Assembly (NCBI GenBank): GCA_008632985.1
Contig: QPGO01000071.1
Span: 1 to 64,000, forward strand
Reading direction: 5' to 3'
Length of the DNA stretch: 64,000 nucleotides
DNA from: Psammoneis japonica
Taxonomy: Eukaryota
Position 1 is the first letter of the stretch; the number at the start of each line of letters is the position of its first letter. Of this stretch, positions 9,326-43,290 are shown piece by piece. The position numbers and the translations under genes were made by a program. A model generated the notes under the pieces. The model saw only the letters and a program-made list of their open reading frames with translations. It was not told where the DNA came from and ran no database searches.

Positions 9326-10596
9326 CTATGCACCCTGCGGACGAATCATCACATCCTCCAAAGTTATCTCATACGCGTCAGTGGCGAGCGTCTCTGGTGG
9401 AATGCATCTGTCCTCTTTGCGTTCAAGCAGTGGCTGGCCAACAAACCTCTGCTCCGCTTCAAGTCGACGCATCGTTTCAATAGGATACTCTTCCTCTCCC
9501 GTAATTCCGTCTGGCAACCTTGAGAGCTCAACAGCGACGCGATATCCCGACATGAGACTTTGCACCCACATCATAACCTTGGTCACGTATTCCTCCGTAC
9601 TTTGCGGTGATCCTGCCGGAGCAACGACTGGACACGACAGTACATTTTGATCTCCACCTTGCGACCAGATTCCTTGGCCGCATCCATTCGGACTTTGTAA
9701 TACGGGCTAGTAAGAATGAAATCGAGACCCATGGGCAAAAGCCCCTGCACAATATCCCACTCGGGTCTGTCTGAAAGGGAGCAGTAGACACTCTCGGGGA
9801 GACCATTAGAGGCGTAAAACAGAAATTTTCTTCTTTCCGTTTGTATCTTCTTCGTTGAATCGCCAAGCTCAAATTCAACGTCTTCAACACCATCCTTCAT
9901 GGTGGTGACATACAGGCAAAGCGTTGATCCCGACTCTGACTCGCGTACATCATATTCAATCAACAAAATAAAGGTACTTAGCATCACTTGTACCCGCTTT
10001 TGAAGAAAGAAGCGTGTGTGAAACGCGTTGAGGCACATGGCAACGTGTTCTTCTCGCGAAAACACGCCATGATCGGAGCTTATATCCGCAGCAATTACCA
10101 TGCCTTTGGGTGGAGGGATTTGCGGAATATCATCCGGTTTACAAGGATTCAAGTCCAGTACGATCGTCTCCAGTCGACCTTTGGTACCATCCTTACTATC
10201 GACAGCAACAATCGGGTTGTCGGTGCGAGTGTCGTGGTACGTAAGACGCGGCGTAAGTTCTTCTTTCTCGGGAGACATGGACCACTCTGGAACAACGTGA
10301 TTGGTAACACCCACGTCATGATAAAAGGTTTCGTTGACATGCTCATTGGGACACCGAACTTCCCTCCGTGTCGTCGTGTCCGTAGTATTAGCAGCAGCGC
10401 TACGTGCTGCTGCTGCTTCTTTCGCTAACCGCTTGCAGTCCTTCTTGTGTCGAGGCCAGTCCTTGAGTTGACAAGCTTTGTCATGGTACCATACACTCTT
10501 GCAGCGAGCGCAACGCATCAAAGGAGTGCTCCTTCGAGGGCCTCCGCCACAGCTGCAACAACGAGGCTGCTGCTCTGCTCCACCTCGGGACGCCAT
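9326..10596 (-). CDS. MYND zinc-finger protein (one frame break near 9600-9650)
   Basis: ATG at 10596 (MASRGG). MYND pattern 'CCSCG...LMRCARCKSVWYHDKACQLKDWPRHKKDC'. The C-terminus appears to continue in a second frame to 9326. Confidence 0.75.
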
Positions 10597-13063
10597 GGTG
10601 CGTATCTTTGCACTTTGGCACCTTTTTGCGGCTTGTAGTCTTGCGCTGAACGAAGATTTCGGAGTTTTGAAATTCCGAACTCCCTCCAACGTCGTTTGAG
10701 TGCTAAAGAATTTTAGCACCATTGGAAGAAGAGGCATGTAGAAGATGGGCCACAGCATGATTGAATCCATGGAATCATCATCATGCAAATCTGGAAATCT
10801 GAAATCCTTGTGGAAGAATTCGAGAAAACTAAACCTCCCAATGTGAACTTTGGTGACCCAGCAGGAAGAAGTTTGAGCCCCACTTCTTGCTTCTTGCTTC
10901 TGTCGTGAATCTTGTTTTCCAGATCTTTGCTCTTGTTCTTTGTTTGGAGCAAACAAAACAAGAGATCTCATGTCGCTGCAAAGGCACAGCAATGAAGCCT
11001 GCCAGCCCCGGCACTCTGCTCCCCTTGGTCTTGTTGGGACTTCAGTGCTGACCATTGTTGGAAATGTGTGCCAACACAATGGACACATGGCTGGTTCTTG
11101 GGTGAGACAAAGCCAAGATGCGCAAAACATGCTGTGGATGGAGCGCGCATGTGCACAACAAAAGAGTTTCTCACTTCATTGGAGTGGCCAACACCCAGCT
11201 GCTGGCACATGCTGTGTTCTTTGTGGGTGCAACAGACAGGAGTCTCTCTGAGGACAGCAGTCTGAACTTGGTCAGCACTGGCTTTGTTGCTCCTGCTGCT
11301 CTGTTTGAAAGAGAGGTGGAAAAGGTGTGAGCCCAACTTCTGTTTTGGAAAGATTTTTTCAATCTTGAAGGAGTGGATGGGTCAAAGATGAGCAGCAACA
11401 AAGACAAAGAGAGCAACAAGCTGAGATCAGGAGAGCCAAGTTGGTTGATGCTCTGCTCAAGCTGACAAACGTGAAGTGACCACCAAAAAGATTTTGGCCA
11501 GCATGTGGGTCATGTGTGTGCAGAGCTCTCTCCTTGTGAAAGTTGGCAATGCACTAAAAAGAAACAACTTTTTCTGAGCCTGAGTGTCCCAAGACTTGCA
11601 ACAACAGAGAAAACATGATTTGGAGCAAGGAGTGTGATCTCTTCACATGAAGGACATGCAAAAAGAAAGCACTCTGAGTGCAAGACCAAGACTGGTGGGC
11701 TGGTGTGACAAAGCTGTGTGGAAAACAGGATTGAAAGTTTGGAAAACTGAGAAGAGAAATGGAGAGCAAATCCAACATCATCAAGCAAGCTTCTTTTGGC
11801 AACCATCAAGGAACTTGGAAATGATGGTGTGCATGAAAGGAAGTGTGAACCCACCACTCCAAGCTTCCAAGGCACAGAGGGCATTGCAGCATTGGGCAAT
11901 CAAGGCAACAATGAAGACCTGCTGTCCCACTGTACAAGCAATTGTTGGCAGAGTTTGTAGAAAGGTCCGATGGTGGGATTTTGCTTCTGGGGCCAGCAGA
12001 GAAGTGCTGTGCCTTTGAACCTGACAAGGTGATCAAGATTGAAAAAGCCAAGTTTTTAGCTGGCATCTTCTTGGGTGGCACTTGTCAGAAGAAAAAATGG
12101 CTGCAGACTGAATGGTCTGCTGTGAACTGATCCAAACCTCCTCATGACATGCCAACCCCAAGTGCCACACATGTGCAAGCTAGACTGCCAAGCAAACAAG
12201 AAAACAAGAAACATCCGGAAGAGACGAGAGGATCAAGTTCCATGCCGCACCCCCCCACCCATGTCAGATCAACAGGATCAAGTTCCCACCTGACCAATGA
12301 CTTCCACCCACTCCTGACAGACAACAACCCATTTGTCCCCAGACACAATGCAATGAACCACCCTGCAAGAAAGCCCAGACAGCACAGAGAAACAAGTGTT
12401 TGAGCAACAAGAGAGATGATTCACGACATGCTCAGTGAGCACACCAACCCAACCAATGGGAGTCATTGAGCCACAGGATCATGACTCTCAAGACTCAACA
12501 GTGACAATCCCAAGCACTTCAAAAGATGGGCTCATCCTCCATTGCACCACAACAGACAACTCAAAGGCACCCAAATCCAAACAGTCTCCCTCCTGGGATG
12601 ACCCAGCAGTGGAGCCTGCCGAAACACCTTTGGGCTCAGTGGATCCCAAGGTCCTTGAATCCAGACAGTGCTCTCCTTGGAGAAGCACCCAGTGGAACCT
12701 GCAGAACAGGAGCCACCTTCTCAGGCTGTTTTGGCAGTTTTTTCTCAGGCATTGAAACCCAAAAAGTCTTCCTCTGAGGTCAACCCAGAACCCAGCAGAG
12801 CCTCATGTGCAGTGGCATCCTGGAACCAACTCTGGCTCCTCAGCCAAGTTGCTCAACCCCACCCACCCACCCACCCAATGAAGCCCTGCTCCAGCTGATC
12901 AGTCACATCACCTCACAACCTCCTCAACCACCATCAAAACTGATCTTCTCCTTTGAGCCTGCAAAAGAAGCAGCTGAACAAAACTGGATGATTCTCTCTC
13001 AATGTTTCAACCTTGATGATGAGAGAGCACTTCAAGCACAACAAACATCCATCCCAGGCTGTG
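10441..13063. repeat. Left arm of a ~2.6-kb diverged inverted duplication
   Basis: Reverse complement of 26229-28801. The ends match (cttcttgtgtcgaggcc / ggcctcgacacaagaag; atcccaggctgtg / cacagcctgggat), and the ORF 'MSTPTQPMGVI.PQDHDSQDST' appears at 12435(+) and 26846(-). Confidence 0.9.
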
Positions 13064-14095: not shown

Positions 14096-17000
14096 AATGC
14101 ACTCAAAGCCCTTGCACAGCAGAACCAATGATGACGATGATCGGAAACCTCCGGTGATCCCCACCAGATGCCCAGATGGCAGGGACTCGGAGAGAGACAA
14201 ACATGATGTTCGTGCAAAACAACCTGAATCTTCAGCCCAGCCAGCAAATGACAATCCCCCCGATGAATTTCAGGGCCAGCTTGGTGTTTTGGGAGAAAAG
14301 AGGCGTCTCAAAGGCCACAGAACGCATGACAAGAATGTGGTGCCTGGTGCTGTGGCCGTTGGTCCCACAGAGAACAAACCAGCTTGTTCGCACATGAAAT
14401 CTGTTGTGGACGAAGGCTGTCCTTCTTTGACGGCACCAAAACACCATGACATTGATCGCGAGAAGCAAAACATGCACCAAGGCATGCAATCCTTGTCCCA
14501 AGATGCTCTGCTCGAGGACAAGACCAGAGAAGTCTACAGGCATCGCCCGAGCATGGAAGAGGAGAAAACGGAGGAGGAGGAACCACACCAGGAAGGAACC
14601 CCATCCCATGACATGATTGACATGGCTCGGGCAATGAACGCACCAGCTGATGGGGAGGCCATCAAATCGAAAACAAACATGGCTCCATTGGTCGAGTTTG
14701 TGTCTGGACCCCATTTTACGACAAGGTCTGAAACCAAGGAGAGCATTCCGAAACATCTCTCTGCCGCCATTGGCGATGAATGATTGGCTGTGGCAGCAGA
14801 GGTCGTTCCTGGAGAAGAGGATCTTGAAGCCCAGGTGCAAGCTCGAGTCCACAAAGAAAGAGATGAAATTGCATCTCAAGTCCAGAAACAGATCATGGAG
14901 CAAGCCAAGCCAGCCGAGCTTGTGGTGATCAAAAATTCTGACGATGATGCGACCTTGTGCTGCAACAGGCAGAGGAAATGGATGGCCCTGATGGGACTTC
15001 TCGCAATGATCGCGACTGTTGTCAGTCTTGTTGTCACCCTTCTTCCGTCTGATTCCAACACTGATCCAGATCCCGATCCAGATCCAGACCCGATCAAAAG
15101 CAGTTGTGCGTTGTGTGAAGATGGGTTTTCTCCAGTGGACCCACATGATCTTGCTCTAGGAGAAGATGGTGTCACCCGCGCGGACTTCAATGAGACACTG
15201 GGGCAACTCAATGTTGCTGGTGAAGCTTGTTTGCAGGGACAAGCTCAGGCTTGGCGACACTGTGGTTGCCCCACCCTGCCCAATCTCCTGAGTGTGAACG
15301 TAACTTGTGCAACATGCATGAATGTGCCCATCCCCTTGGAGATGCCCCAGCTTCGTGTTGACAACAAATCATGTTCTGAGTGGAATGCACACATGGCGCA
15401 TGTTCTGTCAGATTCACCGGAGTGCAATTCGTTGAGGGCTGACTTGTGGGACGCCGTTGACCAATGCACGTGCATTGAGGATCCAACGTTTCTCCAGCAC
15501 ATTTCTCACAAACTCTTTCCTTTGTCTGGAGAAGCACTGTTGGAGGACGGAATGCCACAGAACATTGTGCTGAATTGGCTTGCGCCAAAGATCCAGCCAG
15601 CCTCTCTGTCAAAACCACCGTAAAGAAAATTCAAGAATGTTGTGCTCTTGCTGCACTGTGCTGTGCAACAGAAGGCATGACGCGGGATGATGACTGCACA
15701 TTTCTTTCGAGCAAAAATGCATGTGAGTGGAGCGATGGCAGCAACGGCGTTTTTGCGCTGGCAACGCCATTGAAAAAATCAGTTTGCGCAAGTCTTTGAA
15801 ATGCAATGTCCGGCGTTGCGAAGCTTGGTGTTTCTGACAAAAATTGCTGACAAATGATGAAACTTTCCACAGCTCACAATGGCTTGCACGGGATTCTCCC
15901 GCTTGAAATGAGCATTTCATCACAGCTGAAGTTCATTGAGGCAAACAGCAACAATCTCATCGGCACTCTCCCTCAAGAATTTGGTGGCCTTACAAAGCTT
16001 GAGAGGTTTGATGCCGATTTCAACTCAATGACTGGGTCAATGCCGGCATCGCCACTTGGAATCCAGAGTCTCCAAGAGTCATGGCTTGACGGAAATCAGT
16101 TTTCGGGATCAATGCCATCCGCTTTTGGAAAATCTCTGTCCTCCTTTGCATGCAAGGGTTGCCTGCTGAATGGCAAGCTGCCAGAATCTGTCGGTGACTT
16201 GAGTCTGTTCTGTCTTGACCTGTCATCTAACGGCTTCATTGGCAGCATTCCTTCCTTTTCCGGGAGTTCCAAATTGCAGCATTTGCATCTCAGTGATGAC
16301 GAGTTCACCGGAGAACTGCCTCCTTCTCTTGGCAGCCTCACACGGCTGGAGCAACTCCATCTCATGAACAACAAGCTGACAGGAACAATCCCCAGAGCAA
16401 TTGCCGCCTTGCCATCCTCAGTTGCCATTGACATTCAAGGGAATCATCTTTCTGGCCCCATGCCTCCTTTCACTGGCGACCAGGCATCAGAGGTCTGGGT
16501 GCATGGAAACAATCTTGCTGGCCCTCTTGACGAGTTTTTTGGCTCGTCCTCCTTGGAGACAATTGTGCGGGTTCGTTTCGAGAACAACCAGCTGTCGGGG
16601 ATCCTTCCTGAAACAATTGGAAATTTCGTCCATGTGGAAGAATTGGACATTTCGTCAAATGAAGTCATTGACAAGATCCCTTCCTCTGTTGGTGATCTTG
16701 CAAACTCATTGGATTGGATCTTTTCGACAATGAGCTTTCCGGCCCTCTGCCATCGGAAATCAGAAATCTGCTGGAGCTGGATTGGCTTGACCTCAATGGC
16801 AACTCCTTGAGTGGTGCGATTCCTCCATTGGTTGGGACCCTGCCTTCGTTGAGGTCAGTTCATTTGAATGGAGATGATTTGACAGGGGAGATTCCTCCTT
16901 TTGTTTTGGAAAAGCCAGAGCATCTGTGGCTTGCAGAAAATCAACTGGGCGGCAAACTCGAGAGCTTCTTCACCTCGACGAACCCAGCTTCATTGAGGTT

Positions 17001-33754: not shown

Positions 33755-35354
33755 CGCCGAGAAAAAAAAAACGCAAAAACCGTCATCCCGACTCGTCGAC
33801 CATGGCCCTAAGATCACTAACGTTGTCATTTCCTGAGGTATCTTGGTAGTAGAGTACGAGGAAATGACAGTGTGCTCTCATTGGACGACTACGTTGTGCC
33901 AGACGATATCAACGGCGTGGCTTCTCCTTGTGCGTAGTATTCGTCGTCGCCATATGGTGGAAGTGGCAATAAAATGGTACAATCCGTGCCGGGACGAGCC
34001 GTTGGGTCGCTCTCAAAACGACTGGAGCCGCCCATGGCCTCACAAATTTGCATGGCATAGTTCAATCCCAAGCCCGTACCATTGGCTTCTCCACTCGCCA
34101 CAAACTTCTCAAACACAAGTTTCTGTTCCTCTTTCGGTATCCCAGGACCCGTGTCTCCTACATCACGACAAGTGATTGTTGTTTCCACATCTTCCCATCC
34201 CACCCACAGCTGGATGGATCCAGTGACAGTATACTTCATTGCGTTGGATACAACATTTTGCAATACCTGTTGGATACGGTGGGCATCTCCCATGACAATG
34301 TCATGCGTCGTCGTAGTTTCTGCCTCCCATGTAAACTCAACACCCGACCGCAAGGAAGGGAGGGTCATTTTGTGAACATCGCAGACCAGTTGTCGGAGCG
34401 AAAAGCGATGTACGTGAAACTCCATTTTGCCCTCGTCAACCTCTCTCGAGTCCAAAAGGTTGTTCAAAATAGACGTACACTGCAAAGATTCATTCCCTCG
34501 ACCGATTCGCCATTGTCTCGGGAAGCTCCTCGGGCGGTGGCATGGACCCCAAGGCACTCGACATGGCAGAGAGAGGACTGCGCAGTTCATGAGCAAAGTA
34601 GGCCTGGATGTTTCTTTCCGTCTCAGCCTTGGCGCTCTCGGCCAGTGCCGTGCCCGTCATGACGGTGGCAATCTGGGAGAGAAATGTTGCCTTTGCCTTT
34701 CGGGCGTTTGTTTTCCATGCGCTCTCCTCAACGTGTCGACTCTACAGAATCTTTTAAAAAGGTGTTTCAATTCTTTGTCTTCTCAGCAATGATTTCAGTT
34801 ATTCAGTTTCGTCTGCCTCTCGATTCAGAGCTATTCAAATAGACTTTTTTGCTTGCTACAGGAAAAGCAGCCGAGCCTGCATAGGAGAACCTCGTATGCT
34901 ACTGTTTCAACATTGGACGAGCTGCTGTGAATGGTAGGTCTCTAGAGAGTACCGGTTTTCCATTTTCTTGGTTTTGTACCGCACCCTACGAAAACCAGCA
35001 CCACCACCTCACTGACCCTCGCATGATACTGCAGATTCAACAGTAGCTAGAGAAGCGCAGTTGCGAATTTTCCCGACACAGAGTGCCTTATTTCACAGAT
35101 TTCTGGTTTGGTACCGCACTTGCGAAGATCGGTACCACCCCCCCCCTTTTGCATTGTTGTCTTCGTGTAGACAACAAAATAATTGAAGAACACCTTGCAA
35201 CCGGATCGTTCGAGAAACAAAAATAAGCGAAGGTTTAGTTTTTCGGTCGAACCCGTACAGCCAACAACCTCCTGTCATCATGGACCCAAAACGCTTGACG
35301 TACTCATTTCCCCGTGTTGAAGCAATTACCTTTTAGAGAGTGTTAGAGAAGAAA

Positions 35355-36248
35355 TCATTGTTTCTTTTCCTTCTCAGAAGAAGAGGCGGACCTGTACGTC
35401 TTGAGGAGATATGTTGTCCCCAAAAGCATGGAGAGACAACAAACAAGTTGCACCTCTGTGAATCCTTGAAAATACCGCGATGAAAACATTCGGTCCGAAG
35501 GTGGTCGATAGCGATACATTTCAACAGTGAGCCTCAAAATAGGATAAAGCACCATAAACGCAGCGAAAAGCTGTCCATGTACAGGTAGCCGATTTTTTCG
35601 TTCCAATCGGAGCAGCACCCAACACAAGAGCAAATTACCGAGAAACGCATACAGTTGCGTCGCGTGCATAGGATCGCTGTAAGTATCGCTACGGTCTTTG
35701 TGATGGTGCCTCCGAAATTGCCTGTAAGCACTCAGCAGATACTCCAGTCCAAAAACGTCACGAATTGCACCATCCTCCTCAATCACTCTCCCAAAGCAAC
35801 ATCCTTCCAACAAACACCCGATCCTGCCAATTGAAATTCCCAGTGCCAATGGAGCTGACCCGAAATCGAGCACTTGCGCAACAGGCATTTTCTGAGCTCG
35901 ACTGTAAAAAGCAATAAGTAGTACAACCATTAGGATTCCACCATGCAAGGTCAATCCGAATGCAGGAATGAGCATGACGAGAAACGGGTTCTTTCCCCGT
36001 GCCCTCGCATTTGCGACAAAGTTCGCCCAGTTTACAAAGCAATACTGAAATCGCGCACCCCACAACCCCCCTACAATGGCGAGAAGGAGCAGAGATAAGC
36101 ACTGCTTGGTCGTGATATTAAATCGTTTTCTGGTTTTTAGCATCAGGATTCCATCGGCTACGAATGCTAAAGCAAGCATCAGCCCGTACCATAAAAAATT
36201 GATGCCAAAGGCTGAAAAGGCAATCGGACCACTGTTTATCTTTATCAT
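35355..36248 (-). CDS. lgt: Prolipoprotein diacylglyceryl transferase (Lgt) homolog, intronless
   Basis: 'FLWYGLM', 'GLWGARFQY', 'GLTLHGG', 'LGISIGRIGCLLEGCCFG', 'HATQLY', 'GQLFAAFMVLYPILRLTVEMYR', multiple TM segments. Start at MIKINSGP (36248); upstream ATGs at 36314 and 36344 are possible. Confidence 0.9.
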   Translation of the reverse strand: MIKINSGPIAFSAFGINFLWYGLMLALAFVADGILMLKTRKRFNITTKQCLSLLLLAIVGGLWGARFQYCFVNWANFVANARARGKNPFLVMLIPAFGLTLHGGILMVVLLIAFYSRAQKMPVAQVLDFGSAPLALGISIGRIGCLLEGCCFGRVIEEDGAIRDVFGLEYLLSAYRQFRRHHHKDRSDTYSDPMHATQLYAFLGNLLLCWVLLRLERKNRLPVHGQLFAAFMVLYPILRLTVEMYRYRPPSDRMFSSRYFQGFTEVQLVCCLSMLLGTTYLLKTYRSASSSEKEKKQ

Positions 36249-36667
36249 GGTGATATTTCTTTGTTTAGGCAGCAATATGGCAAGCGGGTAGCAAGATAGT
36301 AGAGAGAAGGTCATGGATCGACGCACATCGCATGCGGCATGCATCAGAACCTGAACACCGCCAGCGCGAAAGATCTTTCCAAAGATTTTCTTTTTTTTGT
36401 ATTTGCCGTTTTCGAAATGCCAACGGATAATAATTTCGGGGCTATCTTATTTATTTACCTTCAGGACGGTATAGTGAATTCAAGTTATTAATAGCTTTAG
36501 TGGCGTAGGAGATTATAGAAATGAAATTAATCAAAATCAAATATGTACATATTTATTTCTGAATAAAACGATTTTACTGGCATACTGTACGGTACTTGGC
36601 AGGCAGTTGGCAGGTTGGATATCGTCAAAGTAAAAACGCGTCATTTTTTCAGAAGAAAGAAGAAACA

Positions 36668-38242
36668 ATGAAGTGTTCTCCGACCGTCGAGAGCCGCACG
36701 TGGCTGACCTTGCTGCGGGCAGCCTTGCTTTCCATTGTTTTATTGTCTAAGAATAACCTGGTGTATGGCTGTAGTAGCGAAGGGACCACTTGCGCCACAG
36801 GAGAGTGTGTTTGTTCCGATACGCTTACAGCCGCAGAAGAAACGTCTTGTAAGTACACTTCGTGACTTGCGAGGCCTTGCTTCTAAACTCACGAACTGCT
36901 TTACCCTAAGATCGATTACTCACTATCCTGCCCTTCTTTCTTTTGCGCAATTTGCAGGTTGTAAGTAACCACGCAAACAAGAAAACGAGCTTGAAACTTT
37001 CTCATGATGTTTTTGCTGTTGTGTGTTTTGGTGCTTTTCGTGTAATCAGCCGACCTCGGAGCAGACAGCATTGGGTGCATTTCCTGTGATAATGATAACT
37101 TTCGATTTTGCGGTGACGTATCTACGTGCAATAGTTGCTCGGAAGGACAGTGTGTGTGTTCCGATGGACTTATTGATGAAGGCAGTTGTGAGTACAGTTT
37201 AGGACGGGCGACACATTATTTCTAGATGTTTTATCCCCATATGATTGCTCACTACCCCCTCCCTTGTTCGTCTTGCTCAATCTGCAGGTGGTAGGTAACC
37301 GTTGAATATGCAAACGAAGAGAACATGCTAGAAACGTTGATGTGTCTAATACTTTTTTTTGGTGTTCTTCTCGTGTACTTGTAATCAGCCGGTTTCGGAG
37401 CCGGTGATGATGGATGCATCTCCTGCACTTTCAGTGATTTTTGTTCTGATACGTCAAAGTGCAGCGAGGAAGGAGGAGGCGAACGCCGAGCCACCCGTCG
37501 CCTAAACTTGCAACATGATGACTATCTTCAAGTCCTTGACACGTGTGGTGACCTTGAATATGATGGCGCCATCTATGTCAATTCTCACTTTTTTGCGGTT
37601 TTCTATCCATCTGCGGCCACCATCCATGCATCCTGCCCCATGCTCGCCTACCAGCTTCGTTTCGACGAAGACAACTGGCAAGTAGATAGCGCTGATCAAG
37701 TTGAAGAGGACCTTGCGGTTGAAATTATTGTCGACACCTACGAAAACATTGGCCATGGAGAACGTATCTTTCCACGCGACCAGTCGTTTTCAACTGGAAC
37801 GTACACACTCAACCAAGTCGCCGACGCTGTCGCTTCTGTGCAAGTGCCCGAGACAGGAGCCTGGGACGTCCTGCACAACTCGTGCTTTGCCATGGCCACT
37901 CAAATGGCTGTCGCTCTAGACTGGGATATCGACAATGGTATGCTTCCCTACGTTAGCCAACGTCTAAGGATGCATCACACTAGCAATAATGTCCAGAAGG
38001 CCATCAAGACGCGAAACTTTGTCAAATACTTTCAAGGCGGATACCTTGAGCCGGTTCTCCTCAAGACCGTCGAGGCGTGGATTGGCGGAGATGGTGGTTT
38101 GGGCGGTGCTCCTGAGGGACAGGCGCTTCTCGACTTTATCATCAATGCTGATCCGGAAGAGGATGAAGCGCTTGCTGTGTTTTACGACGAGCTTGTTGAT
38201 AGCTATGTTGATCGCGATGTTCGTACCACCAAGAAGAATTGA
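36668..38242 (+). CDS. Secreted Cys-rich repeat protein; exons 36668-36848, 36958-36960, 37050-37187, 37288-37290, 37389-38242
   Basis: Signal peptide, four canonical GT-AG introns and a consistent phase. Two repeats 'C..G.CVCSD.L....SC...GA...GCISC.....C.D.S.C', then an 'RRL' motif and a ~245-aa C-terminal domain. Confidence 0.8.
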
Positions 38243-38935
38243 TCTCTCTTCTCCTTCATCTCTGGCACAGCGTGAGACTTGCTGGTGAGGATTTGGCTTG
38301 GACTCTTGGATTGATTTTCCGGCGACTTTGCCATTTATGTGCCTATGCGTTATGGTAGAAAACTTAGCTAACTAGATGAAAAAGATAGTTTAAGGCTTTA
38401 TGCGCGGGTTGGTGGCACCAAACTACATCATGTGTGCAGTGTGGAGAAGATGTGAACGATGCTCCGCTTGTCTTTCGACAACGTCACGGGCGCAAACTGT
38501 TGAGATGATTATCAAAAATGACCGCTAGTTTCACTGCTTCTATAGTGCAGTCGGCAATCGTAGAAGCTGTGGATCTGGTACTACATGGCATGTTTGGTCA
38601 AAACACTGGGTTTTTTGGATTTTGTGCTGAGGAGGAGAAGCAAGATTACCACAATGCCGTTGATATTTCTGAAAATACATTCAACAACGAATATAATCAT
38701 TTGGAACCAAGATAGGACAGAAATGTCTTTCAGCGAACATGGCAATTTGTCTTAGAGAAAATAACGGTTCTGTTAGTTTTCGTTTTTATTACATATAGAA
38801 GAGTTGTAAATGTTTCAATATAAGTACACAGCATAGCCGTTATGTCGCTCGATCGTCGCACGTACGTACCTCTTCGTAGCTTTAAAATTAAAACTGTAGG
38901 GCCCTACTGTACGCCACGCGATAGTGCGGCAACGC

Positions 38936-40717
38936 ATGGACAACATCGAGGCTCTCGAAGGTCGCCGTCACAACGACACAAACAAAACGCAATATCATAC
39001 GGTATGTTTGCCCATTGCGGAGGAGAAAAGGATAATGAACCCTCAATCAAAGTGTACTTTGGGTCGTAGAAGTAAAAAGAAGCACACAGAGCATGATGAG
39101 CCGCTGTTTGTAAAGCAAAGGCCAAGAAACAAGCCTCCTCCGAGAAAGCGGTCGCCATCTCCACCTCGACGCAAAGCGGAATCGAAACAGCTTCATAATG
39201 AGCCACTGTTTGTAAAGCACAAGCCAAGAAACAAACATCCTCCGAGAAAGCGTTCACCCTCTCCACCGACGTTCAAAGCAGAGCCGACGCTTTCTAGTTT
39301 CTTTGAAGCAACACCATCCGTAGCACTTCGAACGGGACAAGCTGCAAATTTGTATTCTCGTGATTTTGAAATGCACTCGAAATTGGCAAATCGAGCACGA
39401 CAACGCAATCGACGCAGACGTGTTACTGAGTTGCGTTGGTCTGATTTGGAGATTGGGGAACTTTTGGGATCGGGGAATTTCAGCCATGTCTATGAAGTTA
39501 AACTGTTGAGGCGGCGAGTGGACGAAATACAAGAAGAGCAAGAGGATGATTTGAACACAATCAACACAGATGTTTGGGATATGGCATCGCGATGGACAGA
39601 GGCACAGGGGCCCTCTCACAACAAGGTGTCGGACATTTGGGACCTTATCTCTCACTCTGGAACACTGGTGGAAGAGCCACTTGAAGAGGAGGATGAGAAT
39701 CAAACTTATGCGTTGAAACATTTGAATCCAGGAGCAATGAAGAACGAGCGCCAGTTCAAGGCGAATGCGATTGACTTGGTTCTCGAGGCCAAATTGCTGG
39801 CCAATCTCAACCACGATAACATCATCAAACTTCACGCAGTCACTGGAGGGAGCATTGTGACTGTCTTTAACGGTGGGGGCTACTTTCTGTTGTTGGATCG
39901 TCTTTCAAATACGCTAGAAGAACGCATTAAGGCATGGCAAGAAGAAAAGAAACGATCAAAGTCACGTTCTCGTTCTAGACCACGGTCACGCTTGCGTGGT
40001 CTAGGGCGAGATAAGGATGCTGCCAAAAAGGAGCTTACTCCTGATCAACGAAAGATTCTGGACGACCGCCTCCGATCTACAGCGCTTGGTATTGCAAGAG
40101 GAATGGAGTATCTTCATTCCAATCACATTGTCTTTCGTGACTTGAAGCCAGCCAACATTGGATACAACGCCAAGGGAGTTGTGAAAATCTTTGACCTCGG
40201 GCTAGCACGGGAGATTGTGGATCCTGATCAACGGCTGACGGGCAACACGGGGTCTCTTCGGTACATGGCACCAGAAGTTGCCAAGCACGAACACTATGGA
40301 TTAAAGGCAGACGTGTACAGCTTTGGTCTTGTTCTATGGGAAATCCTCACGTTGGACTTGCCCTACCAGGGTTTGAACCGAGTCAAACACGCCGAGCAGG
40401 TTGTGTACGGAAATCAGCGTCCACCAATCGGCAATGACTTTTGCGGGACATCCGATATCATAAGGATAATTGAAAATTGCTGGGACGTAAATCAAAGGAT
40501 CCGTCCGAGCTTTGTTTCGATTCGCAACTCCCTTTTGACCGAACTGGCGACCAATCGTCAGGCCGAAACAGACAAGTGGGTTGCCGACGTCAAGGCAGAA
40601 ACAACTGCCGCGCGAATGCGGACCAAACTTCGAAGACGACGACAAGATAAAGAATATCATCGCTTCGAAGACGGGGGGACCGAATCCAATAGGGTGAGTT
40701 GGAATCATAACGTGTAA
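38936..40717 (+). CDS. Ser/Thr protein kinase (diatom TKL-like)
   Basis: 'LGSGNFSHV', 'YALK', 'FRDLKPANIG', 'FDLG', 'GSLRYMAPE', 'DVYSFG'. 102-bp internal duplication at 39092/39194. Confidence 0.92.
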   Translation: MDNIEALEGRRHNDTNKTQYHTVCLPIAEEKRIMNPQSKCTLGRRSKKKHTEHDEPLFVKQRPRNKPPPRKRSPSPPRRKAESKQLHNEPLFVKHKPRNKHPPRKRSPSPPTFKAEPTLSSFFEATPSVALRTGQAANLYSRDFEMHSKLANRARQRNRRRRVTELRWSDLEIGELLGSGNFSHVYEVKLLRRRVDEIQEEQEDDLNTINTDVWDMASRWTEAQGPSHNKVSDIWDLISHSGTLVEEPLEEEDENQTYALKHLNPGAMKNERQFKANAIDLVLEAKLLANLNHDNIIKLHAVTGGSIVTVFNGGGYFLLLDRLSNTLEERIKAWQEEKKRSKSRSRSRPRSRLRGLGRDKDAAKKELTPDQRKILDDRLRSTALGIARGMEYLHSNHIVFRDLKPANIGYNAKGVVKIFDLGLAREIVDPDQRLTGNTGSLRYMAPEVAKHEHYGLKADVYSFGLVLWEILTLDLPYQGLNRVKHAEQVVYGNQRPPIGNDFCGTSDIIRIIENCWDVNQRIRPSFVSIRNSLLTELATNRQAETDKWVADVKAETTAARMRTKLRRRRQDKEYHRFEDGGTESNRVSWNHNV

Positions 40718-41115: not shown

Positions 41116-43290
41116 ATGGTGGCAACGACGAGCTTTACGCAGGGCAGCGCAACCTCAATGGGTTCCAGCTCCATGTTCTCGCCCTCTACCAATGCAAGTC
41201 TCTTTTCTCCTCGAGACACGAGCATGGGCGGTGGTAGCGCGACACCGCGTTTGTTTTCGCCTACCGCCGCAACCTCGTGGTCTGTCGAGAGCGCAAGACA
41301 AGAGCTCCGTGAAGCGGTTTCAACCTTGTCCCATTGTGGACTGAAGCTAGCAGCCAAGTGGGCATGCGAACAATTGATTGGATTGCCTCCTCCAACAGAG
41401 CTGGAAGAAGCTGCTCCTCCAGTCATCAAGGGAATCAGCGGTGGTGATGATATGGCTGTGTATGCGAAATCATTGATGGATCTGGGAGAGTATGTGCACG
41501 CTGCGGCGGTATTAAGTCAGCCCTCCAAGGATATCGGTACCATTTCAGCTCCACTTCCGCACTTATCGTCTTTTGGGATCTACATTAGAGCATATGCAAT
41601 GTACTTGGCAGGAGAACGAAGAAAGGAGGAAGAGATCGTTGAACTCAAGTAGGTGATGTTGTTGTTGATGAATTGATTCTTAGAAGTTATGTTGTCAATT
41701 TGGGATCGGAAAAGGAACTGACGCACTCTCTTATGTTTTTGACTTGGGAACAGGGAACCTCTGGAACGAACGACTCTTCGAAATCCGTACTTGTCGCAGC
41801 TCTGTGATGAATTGTCCGAGGCTTATGCTTCGAAGAGTCTGGATGCGTTTGGTTTGTACGTGTACGGCATTGTCCTGAAAGAACGAGAACAATCTCGTCT
41901 AACTTCCATCGCCGACTCTTCCGTTGCATCGCACGGAATCCTCATGGAGTCTATCTTGAGCTTCCCATGGAATTGGAGTGCTTGGCTTGATTTGGCCGAG
42001 TTGTGTTTGGACGAACCGACACTCCATCCAGTTGTCGAAAACAAGCTTCAGAGCCTGGCGAGTCACTACATGTACCATTTCTTTTGCTCTCACGTCTTTG
42101 GAGAAGATCAAGCGCAAGAAAATGCCATTGCCATTATGGAACGACTCATGTATGCCGAACAACCGCCACACGACCATGATGAAGATGCACAAGACGAGGG
42201 TGCTGCCTTGTTTCGAAACTCACCCTATCTCGTCTCTCGCATGGCGGTGGCACACTATCATTTGAGGGCGTTTGATGTGGCCGAAGATTGCTTCGTCGCC
42301 CTTCGGGACCGCGATCCGTACCGCTTGGAGGATATGGATGTCTATTCCAATATTCTCTACGTTCGCGAAAACCGCGTTGCCTTGTCTCAACTCGCCCACG
42401 GCTGTGTACGAGTCGACAAGTACCGTCCGGAGACGTGCTGTATTGTGGGGAATTACTATTCTATAAAGTCGCAACGCCCCAAGGCTGTCTGGTACTTTCA
42501 GCGCGCCCTCAAGCTGAATCGTAACTATCTGAGTGCGTGGACTCTCATGGGGCATGAATATGTGGAAATGAAAAACACAGCGGCCGCTATGGAAGCCTAC
42601 CGTCGTGCCGTGGATGTCAATGAACGTGACTACCGTGCTTGGTATGGATTGGGGCAGACGTACGAGATTCTTGATATGCATCTGTATGCTCTCTTTTACT
42701 ATCGCAAGGCCGCTGCGTTGAGGCCCTATGATGCACGCATGTGGTGTGCCATGGGCGGCTGCTATTTGGGTCTCAACAAGCGTGCCGACGCGATTCGGAC
42801 TTATGAACGGGCAGTGTCACACAATGACACAGAGGGCATTGCAACGCAAAAGTTGGCGGCCCTCTATCGGGAAGACGGGCACGACGAAAAAGCTGCACGT
42901 TGTTATATGCGTCATTTGGAACTTCGTTATGAAGCGACCGACCATCACGCCGATCAAGCACCAGCGTCGATTGAAGCGGTGCTCAACAGTGTCGTCGTGC
43001 AGGCAGCGGAAGCTGAAGCGCTCTTGTTTTTGGCATCGTATCACAAGAAACACGGGGAGTACGAAACGGCGGCCTTGTGTTGTTCTCGGCTGTTGGAGTA
43101 TGCCGGGCCGGAAAAGGAAGAAGGCAAGGCACTGTTGAGAGAAATCAGATCTCGACGAGAAGAACAGTCTGGAATGCGGCAGCAGCAGCAGCAATCCGGC
43201 AGAGCTGGCCTTCGACTAGATGTGTCAGAGGATTCTTCAATGGACGCCAGCTCTGTCAAAGATGAATCGTCTTTTGAATTTTCACCATAA
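41116..43290 (+). CDS. CDC23: Anaphase-promoting complex subunit 8 (TPR); intron 41649-41753
   Basis: 'GLKLAAKWACEQL', 'DPYRLEDMDVYSNILYV', 'DKYRPETCCIVGNYYS', 'AWTLMGHEYVEMKNT', 'DYRAWYGLGQTYE'. Confidence 0.95.

Follow-up and report, generated by a model that had tools for sequence, protein, structure and literature searches.

Are the two interruptions in a gene for a cysteine-rich, apparently secreted protein single introns of 201 nucleotides (nt), or pairs of ordinary short introns, each pair flanking an exon of only three nucleotides? This question is raised by a locus in the contig QPGO01000071.1 of Psammoneis japonica (assembly GCA_008632985.1), of which positions 1 to 64,000 of the forward strand were analyzed (hereinafter, the window). 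The gene occupies positions 36668-38242 on the plus strand, with the ATG at 36668 and the stop codon ending at 38242, and its interruptions are located at 36849-37049 and 37188-37388, each within one of two tandem Cys modules. The answer that we consider likely is that the trinucleotides GTT and GTG, located inside the two interruptions, are real and mostly constitutive micro-exons that are included in the mRNA, and each supplies two bases of a cysteine codon. The parts of the gene are as follows.

36668-36848, plus strand: exon 1, with the ATG, a signal-peptide-like N-terminus, the extra cysteine Cys35 and the first half of Cys module 1 (from translation and a tblastn self-match)
36849-36957, plus strand: sub-intron a1, 109 nt, with a GTAAGT donor and a CAG acceptor (TTGCAG)
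36958-36960, plus strand: predicted micro-exon 1, GTT, which would complete T/GT (Cys) and start T/CC (Ser)
36961-37049, plus strand: sub-intron b1, 89 nt, with a GTAAGT donor, a CTCAT branch candidate, a 58-nt AG-free tail and an AATCAG acceptor
37050-37187, plus strand: middle exon, 138 nt, beginning with CC and ending with ...AGT T, with the second half of module 1 and the first half of module 2
37188-37287, plus strand: sub-intron a2, 100 nt, with a GTGAGT donor and a CAG acceptor (CTGCAG)
37288-37290, plus strand: predicted micro-exon 2, GTG, which would complete T/GT (Cys) and start G/CC (Ala)
37291-37388, plus strand: sub-intron b2, 98 nt, with a GTAGGT donor, a CTAAT branch candidate, a 55-nt AG-free tail and an AATCAG acceptor
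37389-38242, plus strand: last exon, beginning with CC and ending with the stop codon, with the second half of module 2, then an RRL site and a conserved C-terminal domain that shows a His...NxC signature

The two interruptions share the same layout, GT..CTCAC..pyrimidines..CAG/GTN/GTRRGT..AATCAG. Exon 1 ends with ...TCT T, where the final T is the first base of a split TGT codon (phase 1), and the in-frame translation of the middle exon (37052-37186) yields the peptide P0052. The branch-point candidate of sub-intron a1 is the CTCAC at 36919-36923, 35 nt from the 3' site, within an intron that has a 45-nt AG-free, pyrimidine-rich tail; the counterpart in a2 is the CTCAC at 37248-37252, 36 nt from the 3' site, with a 60-nt AG-free tail. 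Both interruptions are exactly 201 nt long despite the unequal sub-introns (109+3+89 versus 100+3+98), the indels that occurred after the duplication having offset each other; the equality of the totals may be a coincidence.

With the micro-exons included, the junctions read ...EETSCSDLGA... and ...DEGSCAGFGA..., and each module contains 8 Cys; with the micro-exons skipped, they read ...EETSSDLGA... and ...DEGSSGFGA..., with Ser at the junction and 7 Cys per module. In both forms, the frame is open to the stop at 38242. A preliminary description of this locus had proposed the two 3-nt exons, and its coordinates and splice strings are all exact to the base; translation likewise confirms its statement that inclusion creates a TGT codon and 8 Cys per repeat, with skipping remaining in frame and leaving 7. 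The inclusion-specific 12-mers given in that description are TCTTGTTCCGAC and AGTTGTGCCGGT. Read-through of any sub-intron meets stop codons and, in particular, when the a sub-intron is removed and the b sub-intron retained, a TAA is reached after three codons (TGT TGT AAG TAA). Because removal of the a sub-intron alone hits this stop, a productive mRNA requires removal of either both sub-introns or the whole 201 nt, and use of the strong internal CAG demands the adjacent donor. No open reading frame (ORF) of at least 100 amino acids exists on either strand across 36447-37384, and alternative gene models were rejected on this ground together with the stop codons met by intron read-through.

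All four sub-introns combine a GTRRGT donor, a YAG acceptor, a CTNAY branch candidate 35-45 nt upstream and an AG-free tail of 45-60 nt. As controls, both strands were scanned for GT..YAG segments that would connect open frames of 60 codons or more, and from the 130 heuristic candidates obtained in this way we picked by hand seven likely introns of the window. These introns are 87-150 nt long and have GTAAGT, GTGAGT or GTAGGT donors, a CTNAY-type branch candidate and an AG-free tail; one of them, the 105-nt intron at 41649-41753 in the neighbouring APC8/Cdc23 gene, splits a Pfam profile that continues across it and so backs the intron. The sub-introns, at 89-109 nt, fall within the range of the controls, so that, compared with these seven hand-picked introns, both introns that flank each micro-exon appear viable on their own by length and signals. 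Furthermore, the micro-exons are bounded by canonical 3' and 5' sites (CAG/GTT/GTAAGT and CAG/GTG/GTAGGT), and their inclusion keeps the frame and restores a residue that is conserved in homologues (see below).

The same two regions can be read as single 201-nt introns, with the internal CAG and GTRRGT unused or serving as a recursive or decoy intermediate whose outcome equals skipping, and with 7-Cys modules as the result. This is the simplest model and the output expected of a standard gene predictor: the outer GT (36849, 37188) and AG (37049, 37388) are canonical, and direct removal is in frame. We nevertheless consider it unlikely, given that 201 nt exceeds the length of all seven likely introns of the window and that the good branch point and pyrimidine tract in front of the internal CAG make the use of this acceptor expected. 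Recursive splice sites are zero-length 'ratchet' exons of the form YAG/GTRAGT, and fungal stwintrons are nested spliceosomal twin introns; both resemble the arrangement described here in that an internal 3' site is followed almost immediately by a 5' site inside an apparent long intron that would be removed stepwise. A zero-length recursive step is formally possible at the present locus, where GT directly follows the internal CAG, but the hexamers after the AG, GTTGTA and GTGGTA, lack a G at +5, and the consensus GTAAGT and GTAGGT located 3 nt downstream are far better donors. The candidate recursive sites were therefore rejected; unlike in recursive splicing, the three coding bases between the AG and the strong GT would remain in the mRNA. 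A stwintron was rejected as well: the genomic sequence contains all four donors and all four acceptors in complete form, and neither sub-intron breaks the splice signal of the other.

Enumeration of internal exons that are in frame, stop-free and flanked by sub-introns of at least 40 nt leaves just two possibilities per 201-nt region. Of these, only the 3-nt exon recurs in both copies, and only it has a consensus donor; the other enumerated exons would need GTAACC or GTTGAA donors. The motif YAGGTNGTRNGT has two sites in the 64 kb, which are the two micro-exons, against an expectation of 0.28, and two sites were reached in 2 of 100 shuffles. By a rough estimate that assumes uniform base composition, YAG-NNN-GTRNGT should occur about once per 16,000 positions, or about 0.01 times per 200-nt intron, and the cassette with NNN = GTN about 7e-4 times per 200-nt intron.

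The preliminary description also held that the cassette was duplicated along with the protein repeat and that the splice signals were kept as the intron interiors diverged, and both statements are borne out by the comparison of the two copies. The corresponding sub-introns are clearly alike when compared with shuffled sequences (z of 9.3 for a1/a2 and 5.8 for b1/b2). The a and b sub-introns compared with each other reach z of just 1.2-2.1, and the possibility that the second sub-intron is a duplicate of the first was rejected given that this likeness is not significant. The intron/micro-exon/intron cassette was evidently present before the module was duplicated in tandem, and both copies have retained it. 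In the internal signals (CTCAC, CAG, the GT of the exon and GTRRGT), 15 of the 16 positions are identical between the copies, the sole change being an A/G difference within the consensus, and 8 of the 9 outer splice-signal positions are identical as well, compared to 109 of the 186 remaining intronic columns (0.586); the binomial P for the internal signals is 0.002, with the positions chosen after inspection. If each interruption were a single intron, the survival of 15 of 16 internal signal positions in both copies would be left unexplained. The best local blastn match between the two 201-nt regions (36914-37000 versus 37243-37338) has the micro-exon at its centre, and the top-ranking repeat families, D1 and D5, correspond to the micro-exon island and the branch-point island. 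When both regions were compared by blastn with the 64-kb window as a test for introner-like elements, each matched only the other.

Across the repeat unit (36770-37450), the introns are 0.64 and 0.61 identical between the copies, that is, at least as similar as the exon segments (0.48 and 0.53, values that include poorly alignable flanks). This similarity suggests fast-evolving exons, constrained introns, or both.

The protein relatives provide a further line of evidence. The product of the last exon, P0001, was searched against a library of 1.84 billion proteins at E <= 1e-3, which yielded at least 50 relatives, 15 of them at E <= 1e-10 (the best one, P0002, at 7.8e-48). The relatives look secreted and share a three-part layout, in which a variable N-terminal part rich in Cys is followed by an R-x-L site and then by the conserved C-terminal domain. 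Among them, 11 carry a module that opens with C-x(3-5)-C-x-C, as both modules of the gene described here do, and the gap from this opening to the next Cys (counted by hand, as all Cys spacings, from printed sequence strings) is 7-13 residues in 10 of the 11 homologous modules, the exception being P0014 with 18. In the modules described here, this gap is 11 and 9 residues with the micro-exons and 20 and 18 residues without them. The single-module relatives P0010 and P0044 have exactly 8 Cys in the pattern C-x4-C-x-C-x7-9-C-x5-7-C-x2-C-x4-7-C-x6-10-C, which both modules here match only with the micro-exon Cys; the modules of P0010, P0044 and P0022 all continue with C-x5-7-C-x2-C, and in alignments the micro-exon Cys pairs with the fourth Cys of these three proteins. 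A single 201-nt intron would leave unexplained why the three nucleotides encode exactly the Cys that is found in 10 of the 11 homologous modules.

Against Pfam, exon 1 shows a sub-threshold match to EGF_Tenascin (E 0.066, 13.7 bits versus a cut-off of 25, profile positions 5-20 of 29) that ends just short of the expected position of the last EGF Cys; no EGF profile match was detected on 10 homologues. Should the module be EGF-like, the micro-exon Cys would partner the second Cys of C-x-C, which we note only as a lead. A scan of metagenome contigs with the P0001+P0002 pattern matched 159 stretches, none of them a relative, and the exon-2 peptide P0052 had no match among longer proteins. From the search with the type-A alignment A3, just two further relatives were obtained, P0053 and P0054, both with 6 Cys, and a cluster look-up of 10 relatives returned a single name, 'trypsin', for the fused protein P0037.

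Several considerations weigh against the inclusion of the micro-exons. The case for it draws on signal anatomy, retention after the duplication and distant homologues, and the skipped form likewise keeps the frame, relies on the same outer GT and AG dinucleotides and encodes a plausible protein. The seven control introns were picked by hand out of the 130 heuristic candidates, the statistic for signal conservation is post hoc, and an island of 30 columns with 25 identities, taken alone, would be no great surprise given an intronic identity of about 60%. Moreover, the two cassettes stem from a single ancestral event and thus are not independent observations. The homologous modules are only distantly related (overall identity of about 25-30%), and their sequences could be transcript-derived or ORF calls; no annotated or transcript-derived orthologue was found. 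In local BLOSUM62 comparisons against 10 homologous modules, the included forms scored higher than the skipped forms in 13 of the 20 cases, equally in 5 and one point lower in 2, with no shuffle control and with a scoring that favours the extra-Cys form by construction. The Cys count of the whole protein does not discriminate between the models either: it is odd for the mature N-terminal region in both cases (17 with the micro-exons included and 15 with both skipped), so that parity was rejected as a test and only the count per module, 8 versus 7, is informative.

The total becomes even (16) only when exactly one micro-exon is included, a speculative count that would fit alternative cassette exons, with a regulated ratio of inclusion to skipping that switches modules between 8 and 7 Cys. 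Such a disulfide switch, the part of the preliminary interpretation that finds no support here, gains some plausibility from both forms being in frame and from animal 3-nt exons often being alternative (Drosophila hth, PMC7392893; see also PMC4674806). The internal splice sites at the present locus are, however, as strong as the nearby constitutive ones, and the strong internal CAG and GTRRGT favour constitutive inclusion. In addition, an unpaired Cys in a module of a secreted protein is usually deleterious, and alternative splicing in organisms whose short introns are recognized by intron definition takes the form of exon skipping less often. We therefore regard regulated switching as improbable. 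A more elaborate variant, in which the two 3-nt exons are regulated independently, would give up to four secreted isoforms, each module being fully disulfide-bonded or carrying a free thiol, and thus a redox or cross-linking switch controlled by splicing in a unicellular eukaryote; it would also be the first reported case, outside animals and plants, of a micro-exon cassette duplicated in tandem, and we consider it slightly more improbable still. The other part of the preliminary interpretation, that these are real 3-nt exons, is supported by the signal anatomy, by the persistence of these signals in the two diverged copies and by the presence of a Cys at the corresponding position in homologous modules.

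With constitutive inclusion as the preferred reading, the following mechanism can be proposed. At one and the same position, each Cys module would contain two short spliceosomal introns of the ordinary kind, separated by a 3-nt exon; the upstream exon would supply the T, and the micro-exon the GT, of the TGT codon for the fourth Cys of the module, and the third base of the micro-exon would open the next codon. Each sub-intron of about 100 nt would be recognized on its own, by intron definition. Removal of either sub-intron first would fuse the three nucleotides to a long exon, after which the second splicing reaction would be an ordinary one, and such stepwise removal would avoid a steric clash between 3' and 5' site complexes bound 3 nt apart. 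Both the steric problem at micro-exons and its stepwise solution are established from work on micro-exon and recursive splicing. Under this scheme, the spliceosome would use the internal sites, and inclusion would probably be the main product.

Exons of 1-3 nt are already known in plants and animals, and the present locus leaves the general picture of splicing unchanged; its unusual aspects are that the entire cassette is duplicated in tandem and that it occurs in this host lineage. In plants, APC11 and VPS55 contain constitutive 1-nt micro-exons (Guo and Liu 2015, PMC4674806), and a wider set of 1-15 nt has been described, with the adjacent donor strongly conserved as GTRAGT (Yu et al. 2022, PMC8831610). 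The plant cases resemble the cassette described here in that a tiny exon located between two ordinary introns encodes a conserved protein feature, is routinely overlooked by annotation and has a strongly conserved neighbouring donor; in some relatives, the same bases are found within a larger exon. The differences are that, unlike with the 1-nt exons, skipping of the 3-nt exons keeps the frame, and frame alone thus cannot prove inclusion, and that the present host is a non-plant, intron-poor eukaryote in which the cassette is tandemly duplicated inside one gene.

Among animal micro-exons, the Drosophila homothorax micro-Ex8 (PMC7392893) and the three-base exon of human MAP4K5 (PMC8632122) have the same length as the exons predicted here and likewise insert one residue with the frame unchanged. 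The animal 3-nt exons, however, are for the most part alternative and require exon-definition and enhancer machinery that acts across long introns, whereas here the introns are about 100 nt long and the exons look constitutive by site strength. In Trichoderma, a regulated micro-exon switch alters the DNA-binding domain of Xlr2 (PMC11121469), which, as in the present case, places a micro-exon in an organism with short introns and intron definition; the difference is that the Xlr2 micro-exon is a regulated switch. That report calls functional micro-exons previously undescribed in filamentous fungi, and reports of micro-exons outside animals and plants accordingly appear sparse. Literature searches on micro-exons in diatoms, including Phaeodactylum and Thalassiosira, and in stramenopiles yielded no relevant report.

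If the micro-exons are real, standard annotation would mis-predict the protein, either dropping two structural Cys or splitting the gene. It would also follow that an intron-poor genome of the protist type can contain exons at the lower size limit and that these can be duplicated as a unit. Moreover, the cassette of about 200 nt, present in two diverged copies within one transcript, would be a compact natural substrate for examining how an intron-definition spliceosome deals with splice sites located 3 nt apart.

The best explanation of the overall architecture of the predicted gene product is a secreted pro-protein that consists of a signal peptide, two tandem 8-Cys modules, the RRL processing-type site and the conserved C-terminal domain. 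The R-x-L site (RRL here, 37470-37500 on the plus strand) is located between the Cys-rich region and the conserved domain and is present in 40 of the 49 family members with an anchor regex match. It is similar to the RXL pro-region known from secreted and biosilica proteins of diatoms, which is described as being removed by proteolysis (PMC5525289). Searches with tblastn using the spliced product and its Cys-rich part matched only the gene itself in the 64-kb window, without paralogues.

The C-terminal part (P0001; 37391-38239, plus strand) does not match any Pfam family. In P0001 numbering, the domain has four invariant residues, Cys52, Tyr57, Cys82 and Gly136, and four that are near-invariant in 40 sequences, H66, H88, N163 and C165. 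The AF2 model of the last-exon product has a mean pLDDT of 77, with a core at >=90, and its VIA structural neighbours, all with Z values below the caution line of 8 for this tool, are CLN5 (Z 6.9), TseH (6.8), the DUF862/PPPDE desumoylase (5.2), Aichivirus 2A (5.0) and PLAAT4 (3.9), which we take to be permuted papain-like (NlpC/P60-type) Cys-His enzymes. Foldseek comparison of the model with the PDB gave no match at E <= 0.001. Sub-threshold matches to Pfam Peptidase_C97 and LRAT were obtained on three homologues, and the protein atlas returned leads only (scores 0.89-0.90) that agree with the permuted papain-like assignment. Collectively, these similarities suggest, as a lead, that the domain represents an undescribed secreted family of putative permuted papain-like (His...NxC) enzymes.

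The conservation of this domain also bears on the possibility that the gene is silent or decaying, with the cassette being a relic that no longer has a function. Identity to the closest relative found is only 41-45%, and the product of the gene itself is absent from the protein collections searched, as might be expected of a relic. Yet the spliced frame is open across 392 codons, the C-terminal domain retains the invariant Cys, Tyr and Gly as well as the near-invariant His and NxC positions, and all eight of the eight splice junctions are intact, so that decay seems very improbable and is the reading to which we give the least credence.

The region covered by the window is gene-dense and of eukaryotic type, with about 48% G+C, long ORFs and few short introns. 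A neighbour of the micro-exon gene encodes a protein kinase (38900-40714). Several ORFs of 300-460 amino acids have zero Pfam matches; neighbouring ORFs, at 33892-34656 (minus strand), 9586-11175 (minus strand) and 15851-16807 (plus strand), encode HATPase_c (histidine-kinase-type ATPase), zf-MYND and LRR domains. Finally, the ORF at 35358-36446 on the minus strand, which is arranged head-to-head with the micro-exon gene, strongly matches bacterial prolipoprotein diacylglyceryl transferase (LGT; PF01790, E 2.5e-42). The other genes around it carry spliceosomal introns, and the LGT-like ORF may be a bacterial-type gene inside a eukaryotic nuclear genome.

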